A stretch of DNA of 64,000 bases. Source: a bacterium. GTDB taxonomy: Bacteria > Patescibacteriota > Minisyncoccia > Phycocordibacterales > CALRBL01. A program made the translations under genes and the position numbers. Below the pieces are notes generated by a model, which was given only the letters and a program-made list of their open reading frames with translations, did not search any database and was not told the origin of the DNA. Positions 1,888 through 58,225 of this stretch are shown here, piece by piece (the first letter of the stretch is position 1; every line of letters starts with the position of its first letter). The stretch is taken from positions 111,270-175,269 of the forward strand of contig JAIYEG010000010.1 of assembly GCA_027487075.1 (NCBI GenBank), written 5' to 3'.

Positions 1888-4800
1888 CTACAACGCAGGA
1901 GCTTCAACAGGAGCTGATTCTTCTACGGGAGGAGTCACCGTTTCTTCTTCAGTTACGTGAGTATCTACGGTAGTCTCAGTTGTCGTTGAAGTTGTCGTAG
2001 ATTCTTCGGTTGTCGGATCAGTATGTGTGGAATCGGTATAACTTACAGAAACGGGACGACTTGAATTCTCAAGCAATTGATCAACCTGATCTCGAGAAAG
2101 ACAGGTCTCACCACTTGCATCGCTAATACAAAGCTTATCGGTCTTCACTTCTTTTGTCTCAAAGAACGTAGCCATACTTTCGATCTTCTTCCACATTTCC
2201 TGCATACCAGCAATAATAAGCGCTGGGAGACGTGAGTAGTTGATTCCCATGAATCCATCGGTTTTATTCACAAACGTAATTTCTGGGAAAATCTTTTCCA
2301 TATCCTGCGCAATGAAGCCGAAATCCATCTTACCCTCTGTATCACCTTTCCATGTATATGACACGGGATTAAGCACAAGAAGTTTCTGAAGAGTCGTTGA
2401 AGCCTGTTCAGTAGTAGATGCAAGCGACACAACATTATCTTTCAAGCGTTCATCAGAAGTATTGGTGGTAAGTACACCATCTGCTGTGATACGAATATCA
2501 TTTGCAGCTGCTGCGCTCCCTACCGCCGTGAATTGTGCATTGCCTGTTACGACGAGTCTTTGCAACGGAGTCGTAGTGCCTATCCCCACGTTTCCAGAGC
2601 TAAGAATTGACAACTTTTCCTGATCAGACGCAATACCTGGAGTGACGAATGCAAACCTACCATTTCCTAGGCTGTCAGCAGCAATGAACGTAAATACTCC
2701 AAAGTCTCTATCACCCGAACTATCAAACCCACGGAATTGAATTTTCCCAAGCCAATCCCCTGGCGATATAACCACTGGCAAAGCCGCAGTTCCACGAGAT
2801 CGTGTAATAAGAATACCTCCAGCTCCTGCCGCTGCGTCGTTTGTGCTATATCTCTTAAACTGACCAAGTCCTACAGTTCCCTCAACTGCGAGAGGAAAAC
2901 CTGGAGTTGCTATACCAATACCAAGACGTGAATTAGTATTATCCCAGAACAAGTTTGCATTACTCTGGTTTAATGAACCTCCCGTTGCAAAGAATGGAAT
3001 CGAACCAGCGGTAAAATTAGTAAAGGTTGATGAAGCAACACTCAACGTTCCCGTACCAAGAATATTTCCCGCAACGGAGAGTCTTGTACTTGGAGAACTT
3101 GTACCAATACCCACGTTACCAAAGACGTCAACTTTCAAATGCGGTGTCCATGTTGTGCCGTTATGACCCATCACTGAGAAACCGCCTGTGCCGCTGTTTC
3201 GTGTATCAAAGACAATCTCAGCACCTCCGCGTTGTGCACTATTTGTATAGTTATTTCCAAACATCTGAATATATCCACCCTTAGGAGTTCCTGACCCATC
3301 AAGAATTCCCATATTCAATAGATCTGTTGCATCATCTTTGAACACACGCGATGAAGCTCCTGTAAGTGCGATATTACCATTGACATCAAGTCGAGCTGAA
3401 GGAGTGCTGGTACCGATACCCACATTTCCTGATTGAAGCACCGTAAAGAATGTTGAACCACTTGATGATGCAACCGTGAATGGATTATATCCTGCGTTAC
3501 CCCTCACGAAGAATGAAGTAAGCGTAGAGGTACCATTAACTCCAGCGAGTAATCCTGTATCAAACAAGCTACCAGATGTAAGCGTATTATCTGATCCCCA
3601 TGTCACCAAGCGATTCACGATGCCGTAGCCACCAAGTGCATTTTGTTTTGTTGACGGACGTAAGGTTGCATTGATTTCATTAAGAAATGCATCTGCAATA
3701 TGGAGCATACCACTATCGTTCGGATGAATTCCGTCGTTTATATAATCTTGCGTTAGAACCATGTACGACGCTGTATCAACATAAGCGATATTCAACCCAT
3801 CAGCAGCAAGAAGTCGTACATTTTCTTTTGTTCGCTCATTGTATGCATAAATGGTAGCTGCGGACGGAGATCCTGAAGAAGCAAGTATAGTACCACCCAC
3901 AAATACTGCAGGACCTTTATTGAGACTAAAACCCTTATTACCTGCCGCCCAATCAAAGTACACTTTATTTGATGCACTCGTTGGTGAAGTTACGGTCAAT
4001 ACCACAGTATGAGTCCCTTCAGAAAGATTAGGAATTCTCAAAAGCGCTGAGCCGAAATTGCGATTACGTTGAGGTGTCAAAATTTGCCCACCCGATGTTC
4101 CTGTATTTGAATATGTTCCATAATTAACCCCGTCGATGGTAACCGAGAATTGCCCTCCATTTCCGTCTTCCATCGTGTATGCAATATAAGCAGTAGTACC
4201 CTTGATCGTGAACGTTGCGGTAGCACCGTTTGTAGTCGAGTACCTACCTATATTGCCTCCATAATAAGAGCTATCAAGCCATGTTCCTGCGTACACAGGA
4301 CTCGATGATCCTGTAGACTGTCCTATTACTTTATTTTCATGTGGAATTGCTAACCATGCATTCGCAGCTCTTTGGAATAATTGTGAGTTGGTGAGTTGTC
4401 CTGTTGAGAAATATGCTGAGAGGTCGTTCGTTCCTATCATATAGGTAAAGAGCTCTGAGGAAGTTCCGCTCACAATCTTCTGATATACAAATTCCTGAGA
4501 ATCTGCTGCAGCATCTCCACTTCGAGCTCTCTTTGTAATAGGGATACCAAGAGTATTAGCAATGGCATTAAAATACTGATTTGCTGCGCTGATAGACGTA
4601 CAACATCCTTCAGTTATAGAATCACCAAACGCAGTGTAGCTACTATAGGTGTGAATGATTGGTGCTTTAACAATATTTGAAGCGTATAGAGATTCAACAG
4701 TTGTAGTGCCGTTTACAGCAAGCTTAACTCCGGGAGTTGTGGTTCCAATACCCACATTTCCATTGCTAAGGATAGTGAATTTCTCTTGATCTTCAGCGAT

Positions 4801-7257
4801 ACCTGGTGCCATAAATGCAAACCTTCCATTACCGACTGTGTCAGAAGCAATAAATGCAAATGCGCCATAGTCAATATCAGCTGAACCATCAAAGCCACGG
4901 AACTGCACCTTACCAAGCCAATCTCCCGCATTCACTGGTAAAGGACTCGCCTGACTACCTTGTGCTCGGGTAAGCAAGAAACCTCCCGAACTTGCGGCGT
5001 TTGAACTCACTCCGTTTGCTGCATAGCGCTTCAATGAGGCAAGTGCACTTGCCCCTTCAATTTGAAGCATGAACGCTGGGTTTGCAGTTCCAATACCCAC
5101 ATTTCCTGATCCAGCATTGACAAAGAGTGATGGATTACTACTTGTTCCTACCCGCAAACTTCCCCACACATCGAGTCTCTGTGAAGGAGTGGTTGTTCCA
5201 ATACCAACATTTCCCGATGAATCAACGACCAATCGAGAGGCATTTGCCATATCATCAAAAATAGCAAACTTTCCACCACCAAGACCCGAAGTGTTGTTGG
5301 TGCTTACAAAAGAGTATGATCGTCCACCTGTTGCAGGATCCTGAAGTTGAACACCTGTCGAAGTGGTGAGACCTGTTCCTACAATATGCAGTGCGCGGTT
5401 TGGTGTGCTTGTACCGATCCCCACGCTTCCACCAAATGAGGCGAATGTGGCTCCCTGGCTTGTTACCCTACCAGTACCAGTATTATTTACCAGATTTGTA
5501 ATGCCGGTGCGTTGCATTGTTCCCGATTCAAACAATTCAGCAGTACCCGACAGTGACACGAGATAAGGAAGCGGCGTTACGTTATTAACAATAATAGTTG
5601 CACCGCTCATTTTTATTTTTCCAGAACTTGCACTCACCATACTGTCTACTCCTACGTCATAGGTTTCGAGATAAAAATTAGGATTGACGAGTGAGACGTT
5701 TGCGCCCGTCGAAACGATGTATGGTCCTGAAAGTGAACCCCCAGGATTTTCAAAGTGATTGTTGCTCAATACGATTGAAAAAGCGCTGGCACCGATATTT
5801 ACACGACATGAATCAAATGATCCTCCATCAAAAATTCCTGATGCAAGTCCTCCTTGCAAATCTACACAAGTAGCAGATGATGTGCCATTGGTATTTGCAA
5901 AGGTTGTATCTCTAAACATCAGATTTTCTCCACTATTAAAGAGGCCATTAGGGTAAAAGAGGTTCTTACCGTTATTAACAATAATAGAGTGATCAAACTT
6001 TGTGAGCCATGTCTGATCTCCGTATTGAATTCCGATACCGAAACCTTGAATTTTTATACTATCTCCCAAGAACCCCGTTGCTCCATTGTTTCCTCCGAGC
6101 ATAATACCGATAGTTGGATTGCTGCGATTGGTACCTGACAACACAAGATCACGCAGACCAGAGCCAAACGTTAACGTACCAGGGAAATTAAACGTAAATG
6201 CCGTACCCGTACTTGGGGTATACAGCAATCGAGTACACTCTCCCGCACCCTGCAAAACAACTCGTTTATTAATAAGAATTGAAGTGATGTGATATACACC
6301 ACAAGGGAAATACACAACTCCTGCAGAATCAGAAGCTGCAGCAGATATAGCAGCAAGCACTGCAGTCGTATCATCAGCTGATCCATCACCTACGGCCCCA
6401 TACGCTTTTACGTTTGCCACTTGTCCATTCTTATCAAAAATTGAAGCTTTGAGTGATCCCCCCACTTCTACTTGTCCTCCACCTCTATTCAAAATAAGCG
6501 GGTTGGTGCCATTTGCTCCCGAATCAATAACAGCAGAACTACTAGCATTCACCCACAAACGAAGTGATCCATTTACTCCGCTATTTACCAAAGCAATTCC
6601 TCCAGCACTTGAATCAATACCTTGGAAAATCTCAAGGCGTCCTCGAGAAACGTTTGACGTCCCTATTCCCACATTTCCATTTAAATAGTACGCGGTAGTT
6701 CCCGTTGCAGCCCACGGACTGACAAGACCATTATCAAGAATATCGGCAATCTGATCGGTAAGTGTGTCCACATCGGTTTGTACACCATCAATTCTTTCTT
6801 CAAGACTTCTTACACGACGTGCGAGTCCGGATGTGTTTCCTCCTCCACCCGTAGTACGCACCTGAGTTATAATTGTTGTCGTTGCCGGAACATAACTCTC
6901 ATAATAATTAATTGTTGTATTGTTGGTGGTAACGATAACAGGATACAACGTTGCACCAAGTGACTGATTGAGTGTTGCTTTTGCTTCTTTAATTTCTTCG
7001 GGAGCATACGTAAACACGGTTGGAACAACTGAACCATCGTTAGATGAAATAGTGGCTGGTTGAGGAACAACATACGAAAGCACGGAATCAACAGCTGATG
7101 CGAACGTACGATAAAACTTATCATACAGAGAAAAGACTGACGAAGAAAATCCGGCTGCCGCAGAAACCTGAGGCAACGCACATGAAAAAACAAGCATTGC
7201 AATGAGAATGTAGTGTCGTGGTGTACTGAAGTTTTTCATTTGCAATATATAAATCAC
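1888..7257 (-). CDS. Giant secreted multidomain protein: signal peptide, pectate-lyase-3 (tailspike-like) beta-helix, Gly-rich tail-fibre-like repeats, SGNH/GDSL hydrolase, more repeats, C-terminal peptidase-S74 intramolecular-chaperone domain, Thr/Glu-rich tail
   Basis: 1789-aa ORF; the likely start is MKNFSTP at about 7239, giving a signal peptide ...ALPQVSAAAG. KAYGAVGDGSADDTTAVLAAI sits at about 6361-6420. GDSL blocks FGDSITEG (about 4600), GTNDL and DGIHPND (about 3700) are present. More than 10 repeats of SGNVGIGT(S/T)TP...RL.V.G occur. The C-terminus has SDERLKDNV...LNPVSYTWK...GFIAQDMEKIFPE (about 2170-2450), typical of the S74 chaperone domain of phage tail fibres and endosialidases. 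Confidence 0.75.
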   Translation of the reverse strand: MIYILQMKNFSTPRHYILIAMLVFSCALPQVSAAAGFSSSVFSLYDKFYRTFASAVDSVLSYVVPQPATISSNDGSVVPTVFTYAPEEIKEAKATLNQSLGATLYPVIVTTNNTTINYYESYVPATTTIITQVRTTGGGGNTSGLARRVRSLEERIDGVQTDVDTLTDQIADILDNGLVSPWAATGTTAYYLNGNVGIGTSNVSRGRLEIFQGIDSSAGGIALVNSGVNGSLRLWVNASSSAVIDSGANGTNPLILNRGGGQVEVGGSLKASIFDKNGQVANVKAYGAVGDGSADDTTAVLAAISAAASDSAGVVYFPCGVYHITSILINKRVVLQGAGECTRLLYTPSTGTAFTFNFPGTLTFGSGLRDLVLSGTNRSNPTIGIMLGGNNGATGFLGDSIKIQGFGIGIQYGDQTWLTKFDHSIIVNNGKNLFYPNGLFNSGENLMFRDTTFANTNGTSSATCVDLQGGLASGIFDGGSFDSCRVNIGASAFSIVLSNNHFENPGGSLSGPYIVSTGANVSLVNPNFYLETYDVGVDSMVSASSGKIKMSGATIIVNNVTPLPYLVSLSGTAELFESGTMQRTGITNLVNNTGTGRVTSQGATFASFGGSVGIGTSTPNRALHIVGTGLTTSTGVQLQDPATGGRSYSFVSTNNTSGLGGGKFAIFDDMANASRLVVDSSGNVGIGTTTPSQRLDVWGSLRVGTSSNPSLFVNAGSGNVGIGTANPAFMLQIEGASALASLKRYAANGVSSNAASSGGFLLTRAQGSQASPLPVNAGDWLGKVQFRGFDGSADIDYGAFAFIASDTVGNGRFAFMAPGIAEDQEKFTILSNGNVGIGTTTPGVKLAVNGTTTVESLYASNIVKAPIIHTYSSYTAFGDSITEGCCTSISAANQYFNAIANTLGIPITKRARSGDAAADSQEFVYQKIVSGTSSELFTYMIGTNDLSAYFSTGQLTNSQLFQRAANAWLAIPHENKVIGQSTGSSSPVYAGTWLDSSYYGGNIGRYSTTNGATATFTIKGTTAYIAYTMEDGNGGQFSVTIDGVNYGTYSNTGTSGGQILTPQRNRNFGSALLRIPNLSEGTHTVVLTVTSPTSASNKVYFDWAAGNKGFSLNKGPAVFVGGTILASSGSPSAATIYAYNERTKENVRLLAADGLNIAYVDTASYMVLTQDYINDGIHPNDSGMLHIADAFLNEINATLRPSTKQNALGGYGIVNRLVTWGSDNTLTSGSLFDTGLLAGVNGTSTLTSFFVRGNAGYNPFTVASSSGSTFFTVLQSGNVGIGTSTPSARLDVNGNIALTGASSRVFKDDATDLLNMGILDGSGTPKGGYIQMFGNNYTNSAQRGGAEIVFDTRNSGTGGFSVMGHNGTTWTPHLKVDVFGNVGIGTSSPSTRLSVAGNILGTGTLSVASSTFTNFTAGSIPFFATGGSLNQSNANLFWDNTNSRLGIGIATPGFPLAVEGTVGLGQFKRYSTNDAAAGAGGILITRSRGTAALPVVISPGDWLGKIQFRGFDSSGDRDFGVFTFIAADSLGNGRFAFVTPGIASDQEKLSILSSGNVGIGTTTPLQRLVVTGNAQFTAVGSAAAANDIRITADGVLTTNTSDERLKDNVVSLASTTEQASTTLQKLLVLNPVSYTWKGDTEGKMDFGFIAQDMEKIFPEITFVNKTDGFMGINYSRLPALIIAGMQEMWKKIESMATFFETKEVKTDKLCISDASGETCLSRDQVDQLLENSSRPVSVSYTDSTHTDPTTEESTTTSTTTETTVDTHVTEEETVTPPVEESAPVEAPAL

Positions 7258-10516: not shown

Positions 10517-11470
10517 TTATTCGTTTTGCGCAACCTCTTCGGTACCAGGTTCCCCCTTATAGTTCAAGAGGCTCTCAATAATAGGGTCCATATAGCCAAG
10601 GAAGATTTTATCGATATTGTGCCAGCTCTCTCGGATACGGTGGTCGGTGATGCGGTCTTGGAGGATGTTATAGGTGCGGATTTTCTCCGAACGATCCCCC
10701 GTACCGATTTGATCCTTTCGATTCGCAGCAAATTTTTTCATTTCTTCCTCTTCTTTCATAGCTTCAAGCTTTGCTACAAGAATAGACATGGCTTTTTCAC
10801 GGTTTTTGAGCTGACTACGTTCTGAGGTCGAACGCACGTCGATACCGGTTGGCTTGTGGATAAGTCGTACCGCAGTTTCCACCTTGTTCACATTCTGCCC
10901 TCCTGCGCCACCCGAACGTGAGAATTCCATTTCAATATCTGCGGGGTTGATTTCGATTTTAGTCTTCTTGCGAAGTGGTAGAATCGCTACTGATGCAGTC
11001 GAGGTGTGTACGCGCCCCATTTTTTCAGTCGCGGGCACACGCTGCACACGGTGCACCCCTGTTTCAAATCGAAGTTTGTCATACACTCCTTCACCATCAA
11101 GCTGAAATGAGAGATCACTAATGGGAGTAATACGCCACCCCTGCATCCCTGCATATTTTTGATACATAAGCTCAAGATCGTGTGCAAATATGTTTGCTTC
11201 ATCTCCTCCAGCTCCCGCACGGATTTCGACGATAATCGATCGAGGCGATTCATTATCCGCCTCCTCATCCTTCTTCACAATATCCTCCATCTGTGTCCAC
11301 ACCATCTTCATCTGCTCCTCAATCTGAGCAGTTTCTTCTTTTGCGAGTTCTGCCATAGATGGATCACTTTCTACAAGTGCCACCGACTCCTCCTTCTGCT
11401 TCAAAAGCCGCTCGTATTCAGCAGCTAAAAAGCTCGTCTTATAGTTTTCCTTAAAATCCGAGAGTTCCAT
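10517..11470 (-). CDS. prfA: Peptide chain release factor 1
   Basis: 317 aa with the GGQ motif ([20 protein letters not shown]) and the RF1 PxT tripeptide (RVQRVPATE). Confidence 0.9.
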
Positions 11471-11527
11471 TGGGGTAGTATAGCAAAAAATAAAATTTTC
11501 TTAGTTCTTACTCGTAAAAAACATTGC

Positions 11528-11586
11528 GGAGCCTCTGAGGCGAGCATAGGAACTTTTTAGCAAAAAAGTATCCGTGTTTTTGAAGA
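11528..11586. repeat. Core copy (A) of a repeated structured intergenic element, between rpmE and prfA
   Basis: ggagcctctgaggcgagcataggaactttttagcaaaaaagtatccgtgtttttgaag matches the cores at 13257-13321, 57256-57312 and, inverted, 30598-30657. Confidence 0.5.
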
Positions 11587-11606
11587 GTAACGAACCTAAG
11601 AAAATC

Positions 11607-11816
11607 TTATTTCTTTGCAGCTGTCTTTCGAGCCTTGAACTTTTCTACGCGTCCTGCGGTATCGAGTACCTTTTCGTTGCCTGTATATACAGGGTGACAA
11701 TGACTGCAAATTTCGACATTAGTAGCCTGCTTTGTAGAGCCGATCTGATAGATGGCACCACACGCACAGGTAACAGTTGCGTCTTTATGATAAGTAGGAT
11801 GAATGTCTTTTTTCAT
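11607..11816 (-). CDS. rpmE: 50S ribosomal protein L31
   Basis: 69 aa, [20 protein letters not shown]...[10 protein letters not shown]. This is the L31 Cys-x-x-Cys zinc ribbon. Confidence 0.9.
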
Positions 11817-11838: not shown

Positions 11839-13176
11839 TCACTGATTTTGCAAGAAATCGATATCTGATTGGAATCCATTGGCCAGCGCAAGCACGCTAT
11901 TGGCATACCCTAAGCCATGCGTTGCCCAGCCCCCTCCAGCATAGTATCTACCAGCCGCCTCCCGCTCTGCACTATAGCCACCCTTCGATGCTCCAAGATC
12001 TGCCAAGAACAAAGCAGTGGCAGTAAAGGCATGTTCAGCGTTCCAAGGGTTTGCCTGAGAAACACCAAGAGCTGCCGCCACTCGTTTTTCGTAGCTAACC
12101 CACGTAGAAGGAATAAACTGAGAAGGACCCATGGCTCCTCCGAAGCCAATCGACTGAGGACATGAGACCACGGTGGTGTAGGGATCAAGTCCGAGGCGCT
12201 TGGTAACATCAAGAAATGGCACCACATCACGATCAGGCTTCATTACCTTCGCAAATGGCGTACCTGTATTTTTTCCCTTACCTGCTCCCGTGGTTGGATC
12301 GGTAAGATAACATTGCCCAACGTTTGCACCAAGATTAGTCTCCTGCTTCAAGATACCGAGAATAAATGCAGCACGCACACCTGTTGCTTGTGAGGCTTCA
12401 GTTGCAAAACGGAGCGCGTCTTCGAATTTGATGGGGCCAGAATTGATGAGAGGAAAGAGTCGATTTCTAATGGAAGCAGCTTTTGCTTGCTGCTGAGCAA
12501 TAAGATTTTGGTATGATTTCTGATCTTGTTGATTGAGACTAAGAAGACGCTTCTTTTCGGCTTCAGCCGCCTTGATTTTTTTCTGCTCATTCTCAACGTT
12601 TACTTTGGTATCAATTTCTTGATCACGTTTCTCACTCAAATCAATTTTCTGTTTCTCGGTATCTGCTTTAGCCTCTTTTACATCTGAAAGCACTGAATGA
12701 AGCGATTCCTGCACCGTCGCTAACACATCAAAATCCTGAAAGAAATCGGCAAAATTACGCTTTGCGAGAAATGCCTCAGCAATCGAATAAGAATCAAGTT
12801 TATTAGTTTTATTCAAAATATCAGCCAGCGCCTGTTTGTCTTCAGCAATACGTGTGTCTAGATTCTTAATAGTACTCACCTTCACCGTAATATCTTTTCC
12901 AAGCTTATCGATTGCAATATTGTGCGCCTTAATCTTAAGCTGTGCACCCTTAATCTGCGCATCGAGAATGGCAATATCTCGCGCAATTGACTGTCCTTCG
13001 GTCTTCTTCTGATTAAGAATTCCCTGTTGTTCTTTGATCTGTCGCTCTATATCTGCCAACTCCTTCTCAAGAGCCTGTCGTTCTTCTGGGGTGAGGTCCT
13101 GCTGGGCTTTTACCATCGGTGTCACCACAAAAAATGCCAATACGAATATAAGAATACATGTAAAAACTTTTCGCAT
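11839..13176 (-). CDS. Secreted coiled-coil protein with a C-terminal MltB-like (SLT_2) lytic transglycosylase domain
   Basis: 445 aa with a signal peptide and a coiled-coil of about 230 aa. It also has ...LKQETNLG... and ...GFGGAMGPSQFIPSTW..., matching the MltB GAMGQ.QFMP.T signature. Confidence 0.65.
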   Translation of the reverse strand: MRKVFTCILIFVLAFFVVTPMVKAQQDLTPEERQALEKELADIERQIKEQQGILNQKKTEGQSIARDIAILDAQIKGAQLKIKAHNIAIDKLGKDITVKVSTIKNLDTRIAEDKQALADILNKTNKLDSYSIAEAFLAKRNFADFFQDFDVLATVQESLHSVLSDVKEAKADTEKQKIDLSEKRDQEIDTKVNVENEQKKIKAAEAEKKRLLSLNQQDQKSYQNLIAQQQAKAASIRNRLFPLINSGPIKFEDALRFATEASQATGVRAAFILGILKQETNLGANVGQCYLTDPTTGAGKGKNTGTPFAKVMKPDRDVVPFLDVTKRLGLDPYTTVVSCPQSIGFGGAMGPSQFIPSTWVSYEKRVAAALGVSQANPWNAEHAFTATALFLADLGASKGGYSAEREAAGRYYAGGGWATHGLGYANSVLALANGFQSDIDFLQNQ

Positions 13177-13192
13177 TCTTCCAGTATACCAG

Positions 13193-13384
13193 AAAAAAAG
13201 GGACAGGCACCTTTTTCTACGAGACAGAGAAACATATAATCGTCAGTGTCCTGAAAGGAGCCTTGTGAGGCTCGACGGAGCGAGCACGAGGAATTTTCTA
13301 GTAAGAAAATATCCGTGCTCCTGTAAGGACACTGACGATTATGTGGTGATCTGCTTCACGAAAAAAGGTGCCTGTCCCTTTTTT
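13193..13384. repeat. Copy B of a TIR-flanked long-hairpin intergenic element, about 190 bp
   Basis: The 21-bp terminal inverted repeats are aaaaaaagggacaggcaccttttt and aaaaaaggtgcctgtccctttttt. Nested imperfect inverted repeats surround a conserved core, gagcacgaggaattttctagtaagaaaatatccgtgctc. The right TIR overlaps the rplY stop codon, and the left TIR ends 17 nt before the downstream start. Confidence 0.6.
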
Positions 13385-14024
13385 ATTCTGTTGGAGCGTC
13401 TTCCTCTTCCTTCTTACCCTTCTTTTCTGAGATTTCGATAGCTGAGATATCAACTGGAGCTGATTCTTCAACTTCTTCCTTAGCCTCAGATACGAGTGCT
13501 ACTACTTCTTCAGGGTCAGTAACGAGGGTTACACCTGATGGAAGCTTAATGTCTTTTGCGAGGATCTGTGAGTCAAACGTAACAAGTGAATCAATAGAAA
13601 CGGTAAGATCGTGTGGAAGATCGGTAGGCTTTGCCTCGATTTCGATTTCGTGAAGCACCTTAGTAAGAGTACCTCCGAGTTCCTTTACCGCAGGAGCTGA
13701 ACCCTCGAATACAAGAGGAACACTCACCTGTACTTTCTTACCCTTTTCTACCACGTAGAAGTCTGCATGGCGTACTTTACCTGATACAGGGTCTACATCT
13801 ACTTCGTGAATAAGTGCGTCGTGGGTCTCTCCTTCTACTTCAAGAGCGATGATTGATGATTCTCCGGCCTTTCGCCATGCTTTTACGAATTCTACTTCGT
13901 TAAGACGGATAGGTGTTGAGGCTTCTTTGGGCCCGTAGAATACTGCAGGCATATTGCCCTCCTTGCGAATTACAGGAAGTTTCTCGGTACGTGCGCGTTT
14001 TGCGGCTTTGAGGTTAATAGTCAT
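13383..14024 (-). CDS. rplY: 50S ribosomal protein L25 / general stress protein Ctc
   Basis: The ORF extends to 14078, but the conserved start is MTINLKAAKRARTEK... at 14024. It has the L25 beta-barrel plus a Ctc-type acidic C-terminal extension. Confidence 0.85.
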   Translation of the reverse strand: MTINLKAAKRARTEKLPVIRKEGNMPAVFYGPKEASTPIRLNEVEFVKAWRKAGESSIIALEVEGETHDALIHEVDVDPVSGKVRHADFYVVEKGKKVQVSVPLVFEGSAPAVKELGGTLTKVLHEIEIEAKPTDLPHDLTVSIDSLVTFDSQILAKDIKLPSGVTLVTDPEEVVALVSEAKEEVEESAPVDISAIEISEKKGKKEEEDAPTE

Positions 14025-14934: not shown

Positions 14935-14952
14935 ATCTAAATTGTAACAAAA

Positions 14953-14993
14953 ATAATAGGGACAGGCACCTTTTGTGTGCCTGTCCCTATTAT
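14953..14993. terminator. Perfect 15-bp-stem hairpin built from the same gggacaggcacc motif as the TIR elements; it sits in a divergent intergenic region
   Basis: aatagggacaggcac-cttttgt-gtgcctgtccctatt, lying between the fba start and the plus-strand DUF1653 gene. Confidence 0.45.
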
Positions 14994-15032
14994 TGATTGC
15001 TATTAAAAACGCCACGTACTAAAATATAGGTA

Positions 15033-15254
15033 ATGAAAATAAAAATTGGTGGAACATATCGGCATTACAAGGACAACTTATATAAAGTCATTGCACTTGC
15101 AAAAGATAGCGGCACCCTTCAGGACATCGTTGTGTACGAAGCACTCTACCCCAACCCGCTTTCACGTGTCTGGATTCGACCTTATTCTGAATGGACCGAA
15201 GAAGTTACCACCTCAAAAGGCGAGAAAGTTGCTCGATTTATTCTTGAGGAATAA
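15033..15254 (+). CDS. DUF1653 domain protein
   Basis: 73 aa, YRHYKDNLYKVIALAKDSGTLQDIVVYEALYP..., matching the DUF1653 consensus. It is the only plus-strand gene for about 20 kb. Confidence 0.6.
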   Translation: MKIKIGGTYRHYKDNLYKVIALAKDSGTLQDIVVYEALYPNPLSRVWIRPYSEWTEEVTTSKGEKVARFILEE

Positions 15255-15266
15255 CTAACCGTTTTT

Positions 15267-16262
15267 TTAGATCTCTTTTGCTACAAAACTAGCAGGTGCC
15301 TTGGCGATGTATTCAAGGAGCTTTTCTTGTGTAAGGAGTCCTTCCTGTGCTCCTACGTACTGCACCACCGACATTGAATTGATTGATCCCCATGCAAGCG
15401 CTTCAGGGATTGTTTTTCCAAGTGATCGAGCTGAAGTAAAGGTTGAAGCAAAGGCATCGCCGGCACCAGTTCGTTCGTATGGCTCTTTTGGATCAGGATA
15501 TGGGGGCATAAACCACGCTTTATTGTTTTCTTTATCAAATGCATAGGCGCCGTTTGGACCATCAGTAACCACCACCGTCTTAGGACCAAGCTCACTGAGC
15601 TTTTGCATGAGCTTCTTAACATCTTTCTCCTCAGTACCCAAAATACGCTGTGCTTCTTCTACATTACAGAAAAAGATCGTTGCGTGATGATACATACCAG
15701 CAAGCGCATCGACACCAAGCGACATTTGAAATGTTCCTGGTTGGAAAGCAAGTTGCACTTCAGGATGCGCATCAAGGTACGCCTCAAGTGATTTGTGAAA
15801 TGGGAGCGATGTTTTTGAAAGTGACGAAAGATATATCCATTTTGGTGAGCCCACATCAGGAAGCTCATACGGATAATCTTCATGCTTAATAAGAATGGTG
15901 CGCTCATTATGGAACCAAAGCACGTAGTGATAGTTGGTTTTCTTGCCCTCATGCACTTTCACAAAATCAGTGTGCACACCATTTTGTTTAAAGGTCTCAA
16001 GACAATCCTTTCCGTAGTCATCACCTCCAACGTTTGAAAGAAGGAATGAACGGAGACCAAGTCGAGCGGCAGACACCGCAGCATTTGGACTGTTTCCTAC
16101 CGCTGAGAGCACGGTTGCAAATTCAAATGGAATTTTATCTCCGAAGGTCATGCAGAGCTGTCGTGTTTTGTGATCTGCGCTGAAAGTATCCTCTGCTTGT
16201 GACAACCTGATAAATGCATCGACGACGGTATCGCCAATCGCAAGAAAATCTATATGGTGCAT
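15267..16262 (-). CDS. PfkB-family carbohydrate kinase (ribokinase-like)
   Basis: 331 aa with an N-terminal GD di-Gly motif and a C-terminal TGAGDAF motif. Confidence 0.8.
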   Translation of the reverse strand: MHHIDFLAIGDTVVDAFIRLSQAEDTFSADHKTRQLCMTFGDKIPFEFATVLSAVGNSPNAAVSAARLGLRSFLLSNVGGDDYGKDCLETFKQNGVHTDFVKVHEGKKTNYHYVLWFHNERTILIKHEDYPYELPDVGSPKWIYLSSLSKTSLPFHKSLEAYLDAHPEVQLAFQPGTFQMSLGVDALAGMYHHATIFFCNVEEAQRILGTEEKDVKKLMQKLSELGPKTVVVTDGPNGAYAFDKENNKAWFMPPYPDPKEPYERTGAGDAFASTFTSARSLGKTIPEALAWGSINSMSVVQYVGAQEGLLTQEKLLEYIAKAPASFVAKEI

Positions 16263-30334: not shown

Positions 30335-30412
30335 CTACTTTCGCTTCTTTGTTGACTTCTTCTTTGTAGCCTTTTTCTTTGCTACCTTCTTTGCTTTTTT
30401 CTTTGCTGCCAT
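30335..30412 (-). CDS. 25-aa Lys/Ala-rich small basic peptide
   Basis: MAAKKKAKKVAKKKATKKKSTKKRK*. Its ATG is followed by a clean frame and a terminator 20 nt after the stop. The 60-aa ORF 30335..30517 is the same frame extended into AT-rich leader sequence. Confidence 0.4.
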   Translation of the reverse strand: MAAKKKAKKVAKKKATKKKSTKKRK

Positions 30413-30597
30413 ATGAGTAGTATAAAATTTTATTTTTAAGAGTATGCGGAGAACGACTTTTATAAAAATATTTTCTCTGCAATACCTGAAGTAATTATCA
30501 TACAAATAATTTTTCATTACAATTATTTTTTACACAAATGTGTGGATAACTTTACATTTTGTTTTTTGAATTTTTTCCACATAATTATTTTAAAAAT

Positions 30598-30657
30598 TTC
30601 CACGGATATTTTTTTACTAAAAAATTCCTCGTGTTCGCTCCGTCGAGCCTCACAAGG
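30598..30657. repeat. Inverted-orientation core copy (D) of the repeated structured element
   Basis: Its reverse complement, ccttgtgaggctcgacggagcgaacacgaggaattttttagtaaaaaaatatccgtgg, matches the copy B core at 13261-13318 at about 90 percent. It lies in a 350-bp AT-rich spacer. Confidence 0.5.
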
Positions 30658-30767
30658 AAAATTTTTTAAAATAATTTTGTAATAAAAACTCAAAATCAAA
30701 ATTTGCTTAATACAAAAAAACTACCCTCCTCCCGTGAAGGAGAAGGGTGTTTGTTTTGTGAGCTGCT

Positions 30768-51126: not shown

Positions 51127-52785
51127 TTAATTTAAATCAATACCGTACCTTTTTACTCTCTGCCTGTTTAAATCAGATTCTTGACCAATTTTAATAAGAG
51201 CATTTTCAAAAGTTGTAGTAATTTTTTTCATTTCATCACTTGCGTTAGCATATTTTCCAAATTGAAGCGCCTGACTAATAATTGTTCGTAACTCTCTTCC
51301 TTCGGAGTTTTTAATTATGCTATAGTAATTTTCAACCGTCACTTCAGAAAGCCTCTTTAAATCATCCTCGTTCCATCCTCCATTTTTAGCAATATCTATT
51401 AATAAACTTTTTGGATCCCTATTATCTTTAAAACTCAAGAACTTATTATTGAATGCCTTAATAAGATTCGGATCACTTAACTCACTCAATAATAAACTTT
51501 GTGTATTATAAAAATTTTTTGATTCCTTTCTTTCATTAATGTAAAAATCAATCATTTCTTCTGCTTCCTCATCTTTATCGAATTTTCTAAAAAGACGAAC
51601 TGTTGCATCTAAATCATTAGGAGTAACTGCCTGCACACCCTTTTTTAGAGACTCTTTAATGTTAGTTAAAATTTCTTCTTTTTCACCTAGAAATGATTCA
51701 TCAAACTTATTCCATGCCTCACCAAAAGTATTACCATAATTTTCAATACTAATACTCTTATCGAATTCATCAGCTTTATCCTTAATTGCCTTGGTATCAA
51801 AATAGCCACACTTAATTGCCTCCAAGATAAGATTATCAACTTCATCAAAATGAGTAAAATTAATTGAACTTAACTGCAACCTCCATCTTTTTTCCACTTC
51901 ATTTTCTTTTGTCTTGCTATCTCTTAAAAAATTATAATGGTTAAAATTCTTAATATAATTGAGGTCAGGTGCAACATTCGGTTGATAAAAAGACCAACCC
52001 AACAAAACGACAGAAGGAAGCCAACCTACGAAAACCTTTTGACTATTATCTTTTAATATAATTTCTAGTTTATCTAAAATTCTTTCAATCTTTTTAATAA
52101 TCCTAATATTTTTGATGTTTAATGATATACAAATACTTTTAAAATCTTTACTAAAAGATTTAGTATCATTGACTGCGATTTGTATAGCTTCAATAGTTGT
52201 TGGTTCAAATTTAATATCAATATCAAAAACTTTTTCTAGTTGCAGATCAAAATCTTTTCTATTATGCTCAGTAAGCATTTCATAATTTAATAACACCACA
52301 ACCTTGCATTTTCTCTGTTCCTTAAGAAACAAGGCCAACCCAAATATATCATTCATGGTTAGATCAGCTCCACAACGTTCTAAATCGTCAATACAAATAA
52401 TTTGATTTGAGACCAAACTAAAAGTAGGAAATATTGATTTATAATCTTTAATTTTTGGTATTTCACCTACAAATTTGTAGACTTTTCTCCAGCTATTCCA
52501 TTTTCCAAAAGAAAAATATGAAAGAATGTAATCAATGTAATTAATTTTAAGTTTTTTAGAATTTTCAAAAATTGAAAATTTTACTTCTTCTAGAGAATTA
52601 ACTCCAAATAAGCTAACGTACGAATACTTTCTCAAAGCAACATTATTTTTTTGAGTAGCTAAATTTAAATAGTGATTCCAAGTATAAGTTTTTCCAACTC
52701 CCCACTCACCAGTAACACACATGATTTCTGGTTCAGAGGTTGAGATAAATCTTTCAATTTCTTCTGCTGCTAGTTTAACTGACAT
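51127..52785 (-). CDS. KAP-family P-loop NTPase
   Basis: 552 aa with Walker A GEWGVGKTYTW and the KAP-type Walker B ICIDDLERC. The gene is strongly AT-rich, about 30 percent GC against about 45 percent in the flanks. Confidence 0.8.
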   Translation of the reverse strand: MSVKLAAEEIERFISTSEPEIMCVTGEWGVGKTYTWNHYLNLATQKNNVALRKYSYVSLFGVNSLEEVKFSIFENSKKLKINYIDYILSYFSFGKWNSWRKVYKFVGEIPKIKDYKSIFPTFSLVSNQIICIDDLERCGADLTMNDIFGLALFLKEQRKCKVVVLLNYEMLTEHNRKDFDLQLEKVFDIDIKFEPTTIEAIQIAVNDTKSFSKDFKSICISLNIKNIRIIKKIERILDKLEIILKDNSQKVFVGWLPSVVLLGWSFYQPNVAPDLNYIKNFNHYNFLRDSKTKENEVEKRWRLQLSSINFTHFDEVDNLILEAIKCGYFDTKAIKDKADEFDKSISIENYGNTFGEAWNKFDESFLGEKEEILTNIKESLKKGVQAVTPNDLDATVRLFRKFDKDEEAEEMIDFYINERKESKNFYNTQSLLLSELSDPNLIKAFNNKFLSFKDNRDPKSLLIDIAKNGGWNEDDLKRLSEVTVENYYSIIKNSEGRELRTIISQALQFGKYANASDEMKKITTTFENALIKIGQESDLNRQRVKRYGIDLN

Positions 52786-52950
52786 AGTTTTAAATTAACT
52801 TGAATTCAAGGCTCGGTCACGGATAATTTTTTGCTAAAAATTTCCGCGACCCCGCCTCGCGCCGTCGCGCTCCGGCTTTCGAGTCCGCGTTACGCTTTCC
52901 ACAAAAGCTACGCCGTCTCTCAGTCTCGCTCACCCTTCGGGTATCGCTTG

Positions 52951-53021
52951 CTGCGAGACTAGGACTCGAACCTAGATAAACGGTGCCAGAAACCGTTGTC
53001 CTACCATTAGACGATCTCGCA
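52951..53021 (-). tRNA. tRNA-Gln(CUG)
   Basis: TGCGAGA-TC-GTCT-AATGGTA-GGAC-A-ACGGT-TTCTGGC-ACCGT-TTATC-CTAGG-TTCGAGT-CCTAG-TCTCGCA-G. U1-A72 and G73 are typical of Gln. The 74-aa ORF 52817..53041 across it is spurious. Confidence 0.85.
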
Positions 53022-56777: not shown

Positions 56778-57164
56778 TTATGATGCGAGAATACCCACGA
56801 GAAGCTTATCGAGTACCACCTGCGTCTGTGGATTGGCGTGTCCTTCTTCGTTATTGAAAAGCGCACTTCCATCTTTGCCACATGCTTTCACGATTGCCTG
56901 ACCACCTGGGTGAATCGGGATGAATGGGGTGAGATTGTAGACCTTGCCGTTAATTGCTGACCAACAATCTGATGCCGTGTTGTGAGGAGCGATGTCTGCA
57001 AGCGTAAGCTTCGTTGAAAGAGCAGTCTCAGTTGCACGTACGGACATATCAGGAATCGCGGCGATCTTTGCCTGAATATTCTTGAGCATGTAATAGTAGA
57101 CACCTCCTCCGATGAGGGTGAGCACAAGAATAACGAGGGCAATAATTTTGATGGTTTTGTTCAT
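56778..57164 (-). CDS. Membrane-anchored cytochrome b5-like heme-binding domain protein
   Basis: 128 aa with an N-terminal TM helix and the b5 signature HPGG (PFIPIHPGGQAI). Confidence 0.55.
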   Translation of the reverse strand: MNKTIKIIALVILVLTLIGGGVYYYMLKNIQAKIAAIPDMSVRATETALSTKLTLADIAPHNTASDCWSAINGKVYNLTPFIPIHPGGQAIVKACGKDGSALFNNEEGHANPQTQVVLDKLLVGILAS

Positions 57165-57183
57165 GAATTGAGTATATCAAAAT

Positions 57184-57369
57184 AAAAGGGACAGGCACCT
57201 TTTTATAGAAGTAATTGAGCTGTAGAATGTTCTCGCCTGGAGAAAACATTGCGCAAGCACGACGGTGCGAGCATAAGAATTTTCTAGTAAGAAAATATCT
57301 GTGTTTTCGAAGGGCGTAGAAGATTGTACAACCAAGTTGCTTGGTGAAAAAAGGTGCCTGTCCCCTTTT
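57184..57369. repeat. Copy C of the TIR-flanked long-hairpin intergenic element, about 186 bp
   Basis: The TIRs are aaaagggacaggcaccttttt and aaaaaaggtgcctgtcccctttt, and the core is gcgagcataagaattttctagtaagaaaatatctgtgttttcgaag. The right TIR overlaps the prfB stop, and the left TIR ends 20 nt before the cyt-b5-like start. Confidence 0.6.
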
Positions 57370-58225
57370 ATTTGATAAACAAATCGAGATCTCCAGCGAG
57401 CACACTTTCGACATCACTCGTCTCTACTTCAGTACGATGATCCTTCACCATCTTGTAGGGATGAAGCACATACGAACGGATCTGGTTGCCCCATTCATTG
57501 TCACTCGTCTTTGAGACATACATTCCCTTTTCTTTTGCCAAACGCTCTTCTTCTTTGCGTACATAGAGCTTTGCCTTGAGGAGCGCGATCGCTTTTTCTT
57601 TGTTTTGTGCCTGACTGCGCTCACTCGTCACATGCACTGATATTTTTGTCGGGATATGAAGCATGCGCACCGCGGTCTCGCGCTTGTTCACGTTTTGTCC
57701 TCCAGGACCTCCGGCGCGTGCGATCGTCACTTCGATTTCATCATCTTTGAGTTCAATATCTGCCGAGGTATGTTCGAACTTCGGAATCACTTCCACCATA
57801 GCAAACGATGTCTGTCGCAAACCCTTCGCACCAAATGGCGAAATGCGCACCAAGCGATGGACACCTGATTCATTCTTCAAATCACCGTATACATTTTTTC
57901 CTGATACTTCAAAGGTCACATTACGGATACCATTGTGATCATTTTGATGTTCATGAATAAGCACACTTTTCCAACCCCGCTTTTCGATGTATCGCTGATA
58001 CATATCAAAGAGCATACGTGCCCAATCTTCGGCATCATCTCCTCCTGCACCAGCAAAGATAGTGACCACGGCATCACCGCGATCGTACTTTTTTTCGGGA
58101 TCACCATCGCGCTTGAGTGCATTGAGTTCTTGTACGAGCTCCTGCGCTTTATCTTTGTTTGCCCAGAATCCTGGATCAAGCATGGCGTCTTCGATTTCTT
58201 TGATGCGTTGTTCGTATGCTGACAT
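57368..58225 (-). CDS. prfB: Peptide chain release factor 2 without the programmed +1 frameshift leader
   Basis: It has the SPF tripeptide ([10 protein letters not shown]) and GGQ ([19 protein letters not shown]). It starts [21 protein letters not shown], which aligns to the region just after the frameshift site of E. coli and B. subtilis RF2. The ORF track's 58226-58294 extension is a TTG read-through of the tRNA-Thr gene. Confidence 0.85.

Follow-up and report, generated by a model that had tools for sequence, protein, structure and literature searches.

The 64,000-nucleotide window analysed here (positions 111,270 to 175,269, forward strand, of contig JAIYEG010000010.1 in assembly GCA_027487075.1, from a member of the Patescibacteriota) contains several long hairpins that share a small conserved core, and this core element, its fold, its relatives in other genomes and its probable mode of spread are the subject of the present work. 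The minus strand carries 58 of the 60 open reading frames (ORFs) of the window, among them the genes that flank the hairpins, whose products were assigned by Pfam as L25, an SLT-domain protein, L31, RF-1, an RF-2-like factor, a cytochrome-b5-like protein and SecA. An earlier reading of the same sequence (the original prediction) had described two full copies of about 190 nt bounded by terminal inverted repeats (TIRs), together with partial copies that consisted of the core or of the TIRs alone.

The two full copies are composite hairpins. Composite hairpin 1 (13193-13384, plus strand) extends from the stop codon of the L25 gene rplY (13383-13385) to an extended -10 box, TGGTATACT (13183-13191, minus), that precedes the SLT-domain gene (ATG at 13176). 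Its outer stem is formed on the left by the word GGGACAGGCACC, henceforth W1, with A/T runs (13195-13216) and on the right by the reverse complement of W1 (13362-13383); the two arms are perfectly complementary, and the right one overlaps the rplY stop codon. Further in lies the first core (13253-13325, plus; 85.2 bits with the covariance model described below), antisense to the flanking genes. Composite hairpin 2 (57184-57369, plus) likewise runs from the stop codon of the gene for the RF-2-like factor (57368-57370) to an extended -10 box, TGATATACT (57171-57179, minus), of the cytochrome-b5-like gene (ATG at 57164); its W1 arms lie at 57184-57204 and 57348-57369, and its core (57239-57311, plus; 64.8 bits) is again antisense to the genes on either side. 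RNA folding bears out both hairpins at their predicted positions, with energies of -106 kcal/mol for 13193-13384 (z = -13.9 against dinucleotide shuffles) and -76.9 kcal/mol for 57184-57369 (z = -10.4). The sharing of terminal arms and core was confirmed as well: the terminal word AAAGGGACAGGCACCTTTT has five matches in the window at up to one mismatch, where 0.02 are expected, and the central word AATTTTCTAGTAAGAAAATATC has three at up to three mismatches, where none is expected. Four of the five terminal matches are the arms of the two full elements, and the fifth is one arm of a plain W1 hairpin (14952-14994; 18-bp stem, 7-nt loop) situated upstream of the DUF1653 promoter (TTGCTA-N17-TAAAAT, 14997-15025, plus); the TIR-only hairpin of the original prediction is real.

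The window was scanned, with the filters off, with a covariance model built from 69 core copies. This returned five core copies (85, 84, 65, 61 and 46 bits); no other hit rose above noise. The four cores on the earlier list are all present, and a fifth, at 52810-52885, had been missed. Two of the four, at 11.5 and 30.6 kb, had been termed core-only; both are in fact carried on long hairpins with arms of their own, unrelated to the others. Hairpin 3 (11490-11609, plus) has arms of about 33 nt without W1, extends from the L31 stop codon (11607-11609) to a -10 box, GCTATACT (11477-11484, minus), that precedes prfA (ATG at 11470), and holds the third core (11514-11584, plus; 61.4 bits). Hairpin 4 (30556-30702, minus) has AT-rich arms of about 45 nt and holds the fourth core (30593-30665, minus; 84 bits), which differs from copies 1 and 2 by compensatory C:G to U:A changes in helix P3 (see below); a separate terminator (30725-30760) precedes it, and a DnaA box, a tiny lysine-rich ORF and secA follow. 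All four of these copies, assigned to class A, are carried on long, copy-specific hairpins, and three of them are antisense to the operons in which they lie. The fifth copy, of class B (52810-52885, minus; 46.3 bits), is found 64 nt downstream of a tRNA-Gln gene (52950-53021, minus) and in the same orientation. In the Logan assemblies of two other sequencing runs the 11.5-kb element is identical, as are halves of the 13-kb and 57-kb elements, the Logan contigs ending within the palindromic cores. Because the same sequence is present in these two other runs, the window copies are not assembly artefacts, and the concern raised with the original prediction, that they might be assembly-derived duplicates, can be set aside.

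The core is a three-way junction of about 72 nt, composed of helices P1, P2 and P3, and represents the constant part of the family. P1 runs on into the long arms and is followed by a short linker, ACU. P2 comprises a 3-bp base, a (G)GA/GA internal loop of the tandem-GA type, a stem of 4-5 bp and a GACG-type loop, and P3 (CG-A-GGAAUUUUYU-AGCA-ARAAAAU-A-UCC-G-UG) contains a bulged A together with an AGCA loop. Among 69 distinct copies, 94.2% of the cells are paired, as against 36-61% when the partners are slid by one to three columns, and changes on both sides occur in 18 of the 27 pairs; the observed values were reached by none of 500 shuffles. Covariation, proposed earlier as a check of the structure, thus gives it strong support. 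The pattern used for collecting copies fixes most P3 positions, and unbiased variation in this helix comes only from the model hits; in copies found only by the model, P3 covaries throughout (for example, GCAAUCCGCC-AGCA-GGCGGAU-A-UGC). P2a and P2b were left free by the search pattern, and all of their pairs covary. The AGCA loop, the bulged A, the GA motifs and CGUG remain fixed in divergent copies, and RNAalifold predicted the same junction independently.

The family scan, in which the variable stem positions of the pattern were free, was carried out on one genome per species (GTDB) and detected the core at 117 loci at least. Further copies are numerous, with several per genome: among the matches listed there are 80 loci from 65 assemblies, all of them metagenome-assembled genomes (MAGs) of Patescibacteria, many of which are designated Zambryski-, Taylor-, Nomura-, Lloyd- or Wildermuthbacteria or Paceibacterota. 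Over 718 kb of core loci the covariance model found 132 copies, with up to four in 8 kb; the frequency is about one copy in every 13-25 kb across 65 or more species. Rfam release 15 recognised only the four tRNAs of the window at gathering level, and around the class A and class B copies nothing relevant appeared at E values of up to 10. Signal recognition particle RNA, RNase P, 5S, tmRNA and 6S RNA were considered by inspection, as were the hammerhead, hairpin, twister-sister, pistol and hatchet ribozymes and T-box stem I, and the conserved positions and topology fit none of these. Literature searches by keywords and by sequence word yielded no account of the core element. The family is previously undescribed, and its hosts are candidate-phyla bacteria of the Paceibacteria type.

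Class A accounts for the majority of the copies. Its P1 is lengthened to 20-75 bp, and the junction is thus apical on a copy-specific stem. In class B, P1 is short, the base of P3 is paired throughout (GGUCGCG/CGUGACC) and one pair is swapped (U:A to A:U). Copies of this class lie immediately downstream of a tRNA gene, or with a tRNA gene on either side, and invariably share the tRNA's orientation; many different tRNAs are followed by such copies, of which there are several per genome. A gene linked to class B was sought and rejected as an explanation: the neighbours are heterogeneous, and the one in the window is a KAP-type NTPase, with no integrase. This neighbour (51127-52785, minus) is a KAP-family P-loop NTPase of 552 residues that starts 25 nt past the class B element. 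In assembly CAZFHL01 (loci L029, L056 and L035) the copies are identical over about 135 nt except for the short P2b hairpin, which shows several compensating changes, and the same few P2b variants recur across distant genomes. The pattern suggests either modular exchange between elements or a hypervariable helix.

The TIRs of the original prediction, which it took for the ends of the element, proved to be a separate matter. W1 with its A/T flanks forms the outer hairpin of both composites, and BLAST found no match to the word in the other core-bearing loci (at least 117). The exact 19-mer AAAGGGACAGGCACCTTTT, by comparison, has at least 120 matches in JGI metagenome contigs ranging in GC content from below 30% to 70%. 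There it usually forms an A/T-flanked hairpin arm; some of these hairpins are short and perfect, sometimes W1 pairs with a related word, GGGGACTGGCTAC, and some hairpins carry other conserved apical inserts in either orientation. No core was detected in 100 of the W1-bearing metagenome contigs (459 kb). Comparison of W1 loci with Rfam and a literature search by the W1 word both gave nothing. In the two full window copies, the inner arms between TIR word and core are not significantly alike (p = 0.07 and 0.24), no more so than those of unrelated copies, and the reading of these copies as diverged duplicates of a single 190-nt unit was rejected on this ground. Because word and core do not co-occur outside the window and the inner arms are unalike, W1 is, as judged from these comparisons, a hairpin family in its own right and not the end of the core element, whose conserved part is the apical junction. 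The window composites are accordingly best described as nested structures, with a W1 hairpin outside and a class A element with its own stem inside.

These data bear directly on a classical MITE (miniature inverted-repeat transposable element), i.e., a 190-nt unit bounded by 22-bp TIRs and moved by a TIR-binding transposase. The identity of the TIRs in the two window copies, the almost equal length of the units and the presence of the core within two of the three W1 hairpins of the window would fit such an element. However, TIR and core were never found together outside the window in the loci and contigs examined, the arms between them are unrelated, and the other two class A copies of the window lack the TIR. 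Moreover, terminal repeats are not conserved in the family, arms are wholly different between near-identical cores, and no target-site duplication was found at the one site open to precise comparison, nor any transposase among the window ORFs. The classical MITE is largely refuted, and we accord it very little credence. Of the three options offered originally (a MITE-like mobile element, a structured RNA processing or termination module, and a regulatory leader), mobility nevertheless fits best, although with an anatomy other than the TIR-bounded one proposed.

As regards termination, the empty W1 hairpin at 14952-14994 has a terminator-like score on both strands, and W1 looks like a bidirectional intrinsic terminator. 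A G+C-rich stem together with a T run is present in the W1 outer hairpins and in hairpin 3. Among class A hairpins overall, a run of four or more T residues occurs at the 3' base in about 10% and on either side in about 24%. Termination in the window probably derives mainly from the W1 hairpins and T runs.

The hairpins of the window occupy the whole gap from the preceding stop codon to the next -10 box. The promoter boxes end 6-8 nt before the downstream ATG, as they do in the relatives at loci L118-L123, and genes in this lineage look leaderless and individually promoted. It had been observed originally that the right arm overlaps the upstream stop codon and that 17-20 nt separate the left arm from the following ATG; both observations were confirmed, and this exact placement would arise because the slot is bounded by the stop codon and by the -10 box of a leaderless gene. 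The argument built on it, that precise placement and core conservation imply function, is weakened by the random orientation of the elements, by their gain, loss and inversion at given slots and by the in-frame copies within genes, as described in the following.

Near-identical cores are found on different arms within the same genome. Two cores at L084 differ by one mismatch over about 80 nt, and two at L054 are near-identical over about 70 nt; in both cases the arms are entirely different, each pair being self-complementary. Other same-genome copies have the whole hairpin of about 135 nt in common and differ in the P2b hairpin. Orthologous slots were compared in syntenic FBA-L25-SLT-L31-RF1-S2 loci of relatives whose L25 is 83-85% identical. 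In these, the L25/SLT slot contains no hairpin (only a remnant, GTGCCTGTC), an empty A/T-flanked hairpin, or a similar hairpin with another apex, and the L31/RF1 slot contains other apices, one of which has opposite orientations in close relatives. In L120, a class A element occupies the slot where the window has its empty W1 hairpin. The other apices (modules 2-4) were considered as further repeat families and dismissed, as they were found at those orthologous loci only, within the sequences compared. Nor was the L119 locus accepted as a clean empty counterpart of L120: it rather resembles an imprecise deletion, in which the apex and 6 nt of one arm were lost. Relative to the flanking ORFs, the orientation of class A elements is about random, with 25 in (+,+), 32 in (-,-), 19 in convergent and 13 in divergent contexts. 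In the slot upstream of the tiny lysine-rich ORF and secA, a class A element is present in the window, in L062 and in L026, with unrelated arms and, in both L062 and L026, in the orientation opposite to that of the window; secA itself is about 65% identical in nucleotides.

Two further features of the secA slot were recorded. A perfect DnaA box, TTATCCACA (30541-30549, minus), lies just past the class A hairpin upstream of secA and is found at the same place in the distant relatives L062 and L026; since only one box is seen, it may belong to a DnaA-regulated promoter rather than to oriC. Between hairpin and secA there is also a tiny conserved ORF of 25 codons, MAAKKKAKKVAKKKATKKKSTKKRK (30335-30412, minus), with its own promoter-like region and terminator, and L062 and L026 have similar lysine-rich ORFs at this position.

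Several rearrangements were noted around the same hairpins. The DUF1653-PfkB pair (14952-16262) is inverted in the window compared with five related loci (L118-L122), with the empty W1 hairpin at one junction, and in L122 a 21-bp perfect hairpin is located at the PfkB/FBA junction. The homology between L119 and L120 stops exactly at the right end of the class A hairpin of L120. In L119, a pair resembling a diversity-generating retroelement (bAvd and an RVT_1 reverse transcriptase; 114-1846) adjoins DUF1653.

Class A copies were also found within housekeeping genes. The secA gene at L002 contains a 119-nt class A hairpin in frame 0, with the ORF intact and a 42-residue insert relative to the window protein; a SecA homologue (P0131) that is 89% identical over the aligned segment lacks this insert. 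The SecA loop concerned (YDPKH...KEVDQIGSF) bears three different palindromic inserts, in L002, L125 and L126, and none in L124, and this probable surface loop seems to act as a hotspot in which selfish insertions are tolerated. The insert of L125, compared with the empty allele of L124, is a clean palindromic insertion of 117 nt, unrelated to the core element. Further in-frame copies occur in MnmA (L039), in TsaD (L068 and L109, at two different sites) and in UvrB (L087), in both orientations, and again the ORFs are intact, with Pfam domains on either side of the insert. Copies within ORFs make up about 5% of those sampled.

The arms of the hairpins carry a signature that distinguishes the two strands. 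When mismatches were scored symmetrically, with the core as written defining the strand, G:T outnumbered A:C by 117 to 50 (p = 2e-7) and G.A outnumbered C.T by 101 to 14 (p = 2e-17). The G.A excess holds in both orientations relative to genes (16:0 and 32:5) and arises because subfamilies of arms contain conserved GA-type internal loops, namely CGAG/CGAG, GCGAAGC/GCGAAGC and GUCGAA/GAGAAA. This asymmetry shows that the core element folds as a single, defined strand. The balance of G:T to A:C, on the other hand, depends on transcription, being 25:3 in sense elements and 29:26 in antisense ones (Fisher p = 0.0013). A transcribed-strand effect appears to be overlaid on the element-strand preference, and it could reflect either selection for pairing in the mRNA or a transcription-linked C-to-T bias.

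According to the principal competing explanation, the element would be a host-beneficial cis-acting RNA module at the 3' ends of mRNAs and tRNAs, one that binds a protein or directs an RNase in termination, protection or processing. The dependence of the G:T/A:C balance on the direction of transcription fits selection for pairing in the transcribed RNA, as do, for a module of this kind, the covariation with conserved loops, the position of the window copies after stop codons, the class B copies that follow tRNA genes in the same orientation, and the retention of the secA slot across distant genomes. The context effect could, however, equally result from transcription-associated C-to-T bias. 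Orientation is random, and in three of the four window copies, which are antisense, a transcript would present the G.A and loop motifs as their complements; divergent genes flank about 13 of 89 copies, only about 10% carry a T run at their 3' base, and close relatives have the same slots without the element. The in-frame copies in secA, mnmA, tsaD and uvrB are likewise difficult to reconcile with a 3'-end module. We consider a host RNA module rather improbable on balance, although it deserves more weight than any other alternative.

A strand-specific signature that is maintained regardless of the orientation of the flanking genes might also be expected if each hairpin were its own transcription unit, in a family of independently transcribed small RNA genes. 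The rod-like RNAs, of 100-190 nt, and the class B copies within tRNA transcription units would be compatible with this. However, -10-like boxes are not enriched on the strand of the element relative to the opposite one (means of 3.58 and 3.52, p = 0.89), copies are found inside ORFs, and the arms are hypervariable; an origin as small RNA genes is, in our estimation, highly unlikely.

Alternatively, the element may act at the level of DNA, as a cruciform or a single-stranded DNA fold that binds a structure-specific protein in replication, segregation, supercoiling or recombination. Function would then be independent of orientation; the 30.6-kb copy and its orthologues adjoin a perfect DnaA box, and hairpins lie at the breakpoints of rearrangements. 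Motifs of the tandem G.A and GCGAAGC types are, in addition, very stable in DNA also. Nevertheless, a cruciform folds both strands and does not account for a signature confined to one of them, there is no bias with respect to gene strand or replication strand, and neither the copies within ORFs nor the tRNA-linked class are accounted for. We know of no candidate protein. A structural site in DNA therefore seems unlikely, if slightly less so than small RNA genes.

The comparisons presented above demonstrate, at the level of sequence, a repeat family with a common fold, a strand-specific signature, turnover and insertions within ORFs. The explanation that we favour, with a probability of roughly 60%, is that the core element is a selfish, non-autonomous palindromic element, copied via a folded single-stranded intermediate of defined polarity and surviving in places where it is harmless. 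It is favoured because identical cores occur on unrelated arms, slots are gained, lost and inverted, orientation is random, the element has no promoter of its own and insertions are found in frame within genes. Such an element would multiply within the genome and turn over at orthologous sites. The strand copied would read GAAUUUUYUAGCAARAAAAUAUCCGUG, and we infer that the intermediate, RNA or single-stranded DNA, is acted on by an enzyme in trans, one not encoded in the window, which would recognise the junction. Recombination between the element's own arms would flip the apex. Copies would persist in the slots between stop codon and -10 box, in tRNA trailers (class B) and, occasionally, in in-frame surface loops of essential proteins. 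Phages or plasmids were considered as a vehicle and rejected, as both the core and W1 are absent from the IMG/VR viral contigs and W1 hairpins are absent from PLSDB.

A number of observations count against a selfish element. The fixed loops, covarying helices and conserved GA-type internal loops resemble those of a functional RNA family, and class B, which in every adjacent case lies downstream of a tRNA and in the same orientation, points to genuine expression as RNA. In the secA slot, the class A element has been kept across distant genomes. The 60 ORFs of the window include no transposase, integrase, reverse transcriptase or HUH nuclease, and no mobilising enzyme was found linked to the element elsewhere, whole genomes not having been searched. 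At the one filled and empty site that can be compared precisely (L125 versus L124), there is no clear target-site duplication. The copy-specific arms are not copied from their immediate flanks: the longest words shared with these, direct or inverted, equal the null (mean 6.64 versus 6.56). Two of the four class A copies of the window sit in two of its three W1 hairpins, which is unexpected under simple random nesting. Finally, the genes at the core loci are crude, simple ORF calls.

Among known systems, the closest parallel to the selfish element proposed here is provided by the Rickettsia palindromic elements (RPEs), of which in-frame insertion in housekeeping genes is the hallmark (review PMC10969869). 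Like the core element, RPEs form several subfamilies of palindromic repeats, about 100-150 bp in length, with no coding capacity and no known transposase, and they are found both in intergenic regions and in frame within unrelated housekeeping genes that are not destroyed (PMC10969869), as is the case here for SecA, MnmA, TsaD and UvrB. In both cases the host is a reduced-genome, host-dependent bacterium. Unlike RPEs, the core element belongs to another phylum, the Patescibacteria, is unrelated in sequence, conserves a covariation-supported apical three-way junction on copy-specific arms and has a tRNA-linked subclass; furthermore, RPEs are often in ORFs, compared with about 5% of the sampled copies here. 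We would claim that the core element works like an RPE, and claim no membership in the RPE families.

The pneumococcal SPRITE, BOX and RUP repeats are also small, structured and interspersed, SPRITE being terminator-like, and they are modular and reported to insert into one another (PMC10969869), which matches the core nested in W1. They bear no sequence relation to the core element, however, and BOX consists of linear modules A-B-C rather than a hairpin apex; we found neither in-frame gene insertions nor a tRNA-linked class described for them (PMC10969869). The Correia elements (CREE) of Neisseria and the enterobacterial ERIC sequences are imperfect palindromes of 100-200 bp that are co-transcribed with their neighbours. 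Correia elements can, in addition, invert, and their transcripts are cut by RNase III (PMC10969869); by analogy, the long double-stranded stems of the core element would be substrates of RNase III. In contrast to the core element, with its variable ends and conserved centre, the terminal inverted repeats are conserved in both Correia and ERIC, and TA duplications are found with Correia elements.

In REP/REPIN sequences with their RAYT enzymes (HUH, Y1), and in IS200/IS605-derived palindromes, folded single-stranded hairpins of one strand are recognised, and the strand-specific signature of the core element suggests a mechanism of this kind. The layout is the opposite, however, as REPINs have two conserved REP ends with 5' GTAG and a variable middle. 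No RAYT, TnpA or Y1 transposase domain was seen in the window, and class A, unlike IS200/IS605 and REP, shows no bias to the lagging-strand template. The double-hairpin elements of fungal and chytrid mitochondrial DNA are short and mobile as well, with two adjacent conserved hairpins, and occur both between and within genes. They differ from the core element in being organellar and much shorter, without a long carrier stem.

A more speculative extension, which we offer tentatively and regard as improbable, is that the junction is the active RNA or single-stranded DNA part of a new kind of structure-dependent mobile element. As a separate point, W1 could be a mobile mini-hairpin shared across phyla and used as a landing pad. 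The junction of about 72 nt would then be copied and re-inserted by a housekeeping or other enzyme, the hypervariable helices (P2b and the mid-stem between the GA motifs) might be segments for specificity or targeting, and the tRNA-linked class B copies might be transcribed source genes. The idea of a landing pad comes from the W1 stem word, which is exactly common to organisms of 30-70% GC, with different apical inserts.

Genomes of the candidate phyla radiation (CPR), or Patescibacteria, are commonly portrayed as small and streamlined, with little mobile DNA. In these, the core element breaks short-read assemblies and marks rearrangement breakpoints; it makes terminator slots polymorphic for insertion and inversion, and essential proteins gain peptide inserts from it. 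The covarying junction and the single-strand signature point to a mobilisation unlike that by TIR-binding transposases, and the many natural variants represent a ready data set for finding the partner enzyme. As the element is absent from Rfam, a family model would improve the annotation of thousands of MAGs.

Two other regions of the window deserve mention. The 48-51 kb region has a lower GC content (0.42) and several small ORFs without a Pfam match; the region by the tRNA-Gln gene may be a small island, in which no integrase was found. Near the left end, an ORF on the minus strand (1888-7257) encodes a protein of 1789 residues that combines pectate-lyase-like, GDSL-lipase and Peptidase_S74 (endosialidase intramolecular chaperone) domains, a predicted architecture that is tailspike-like in a chromosomal context.

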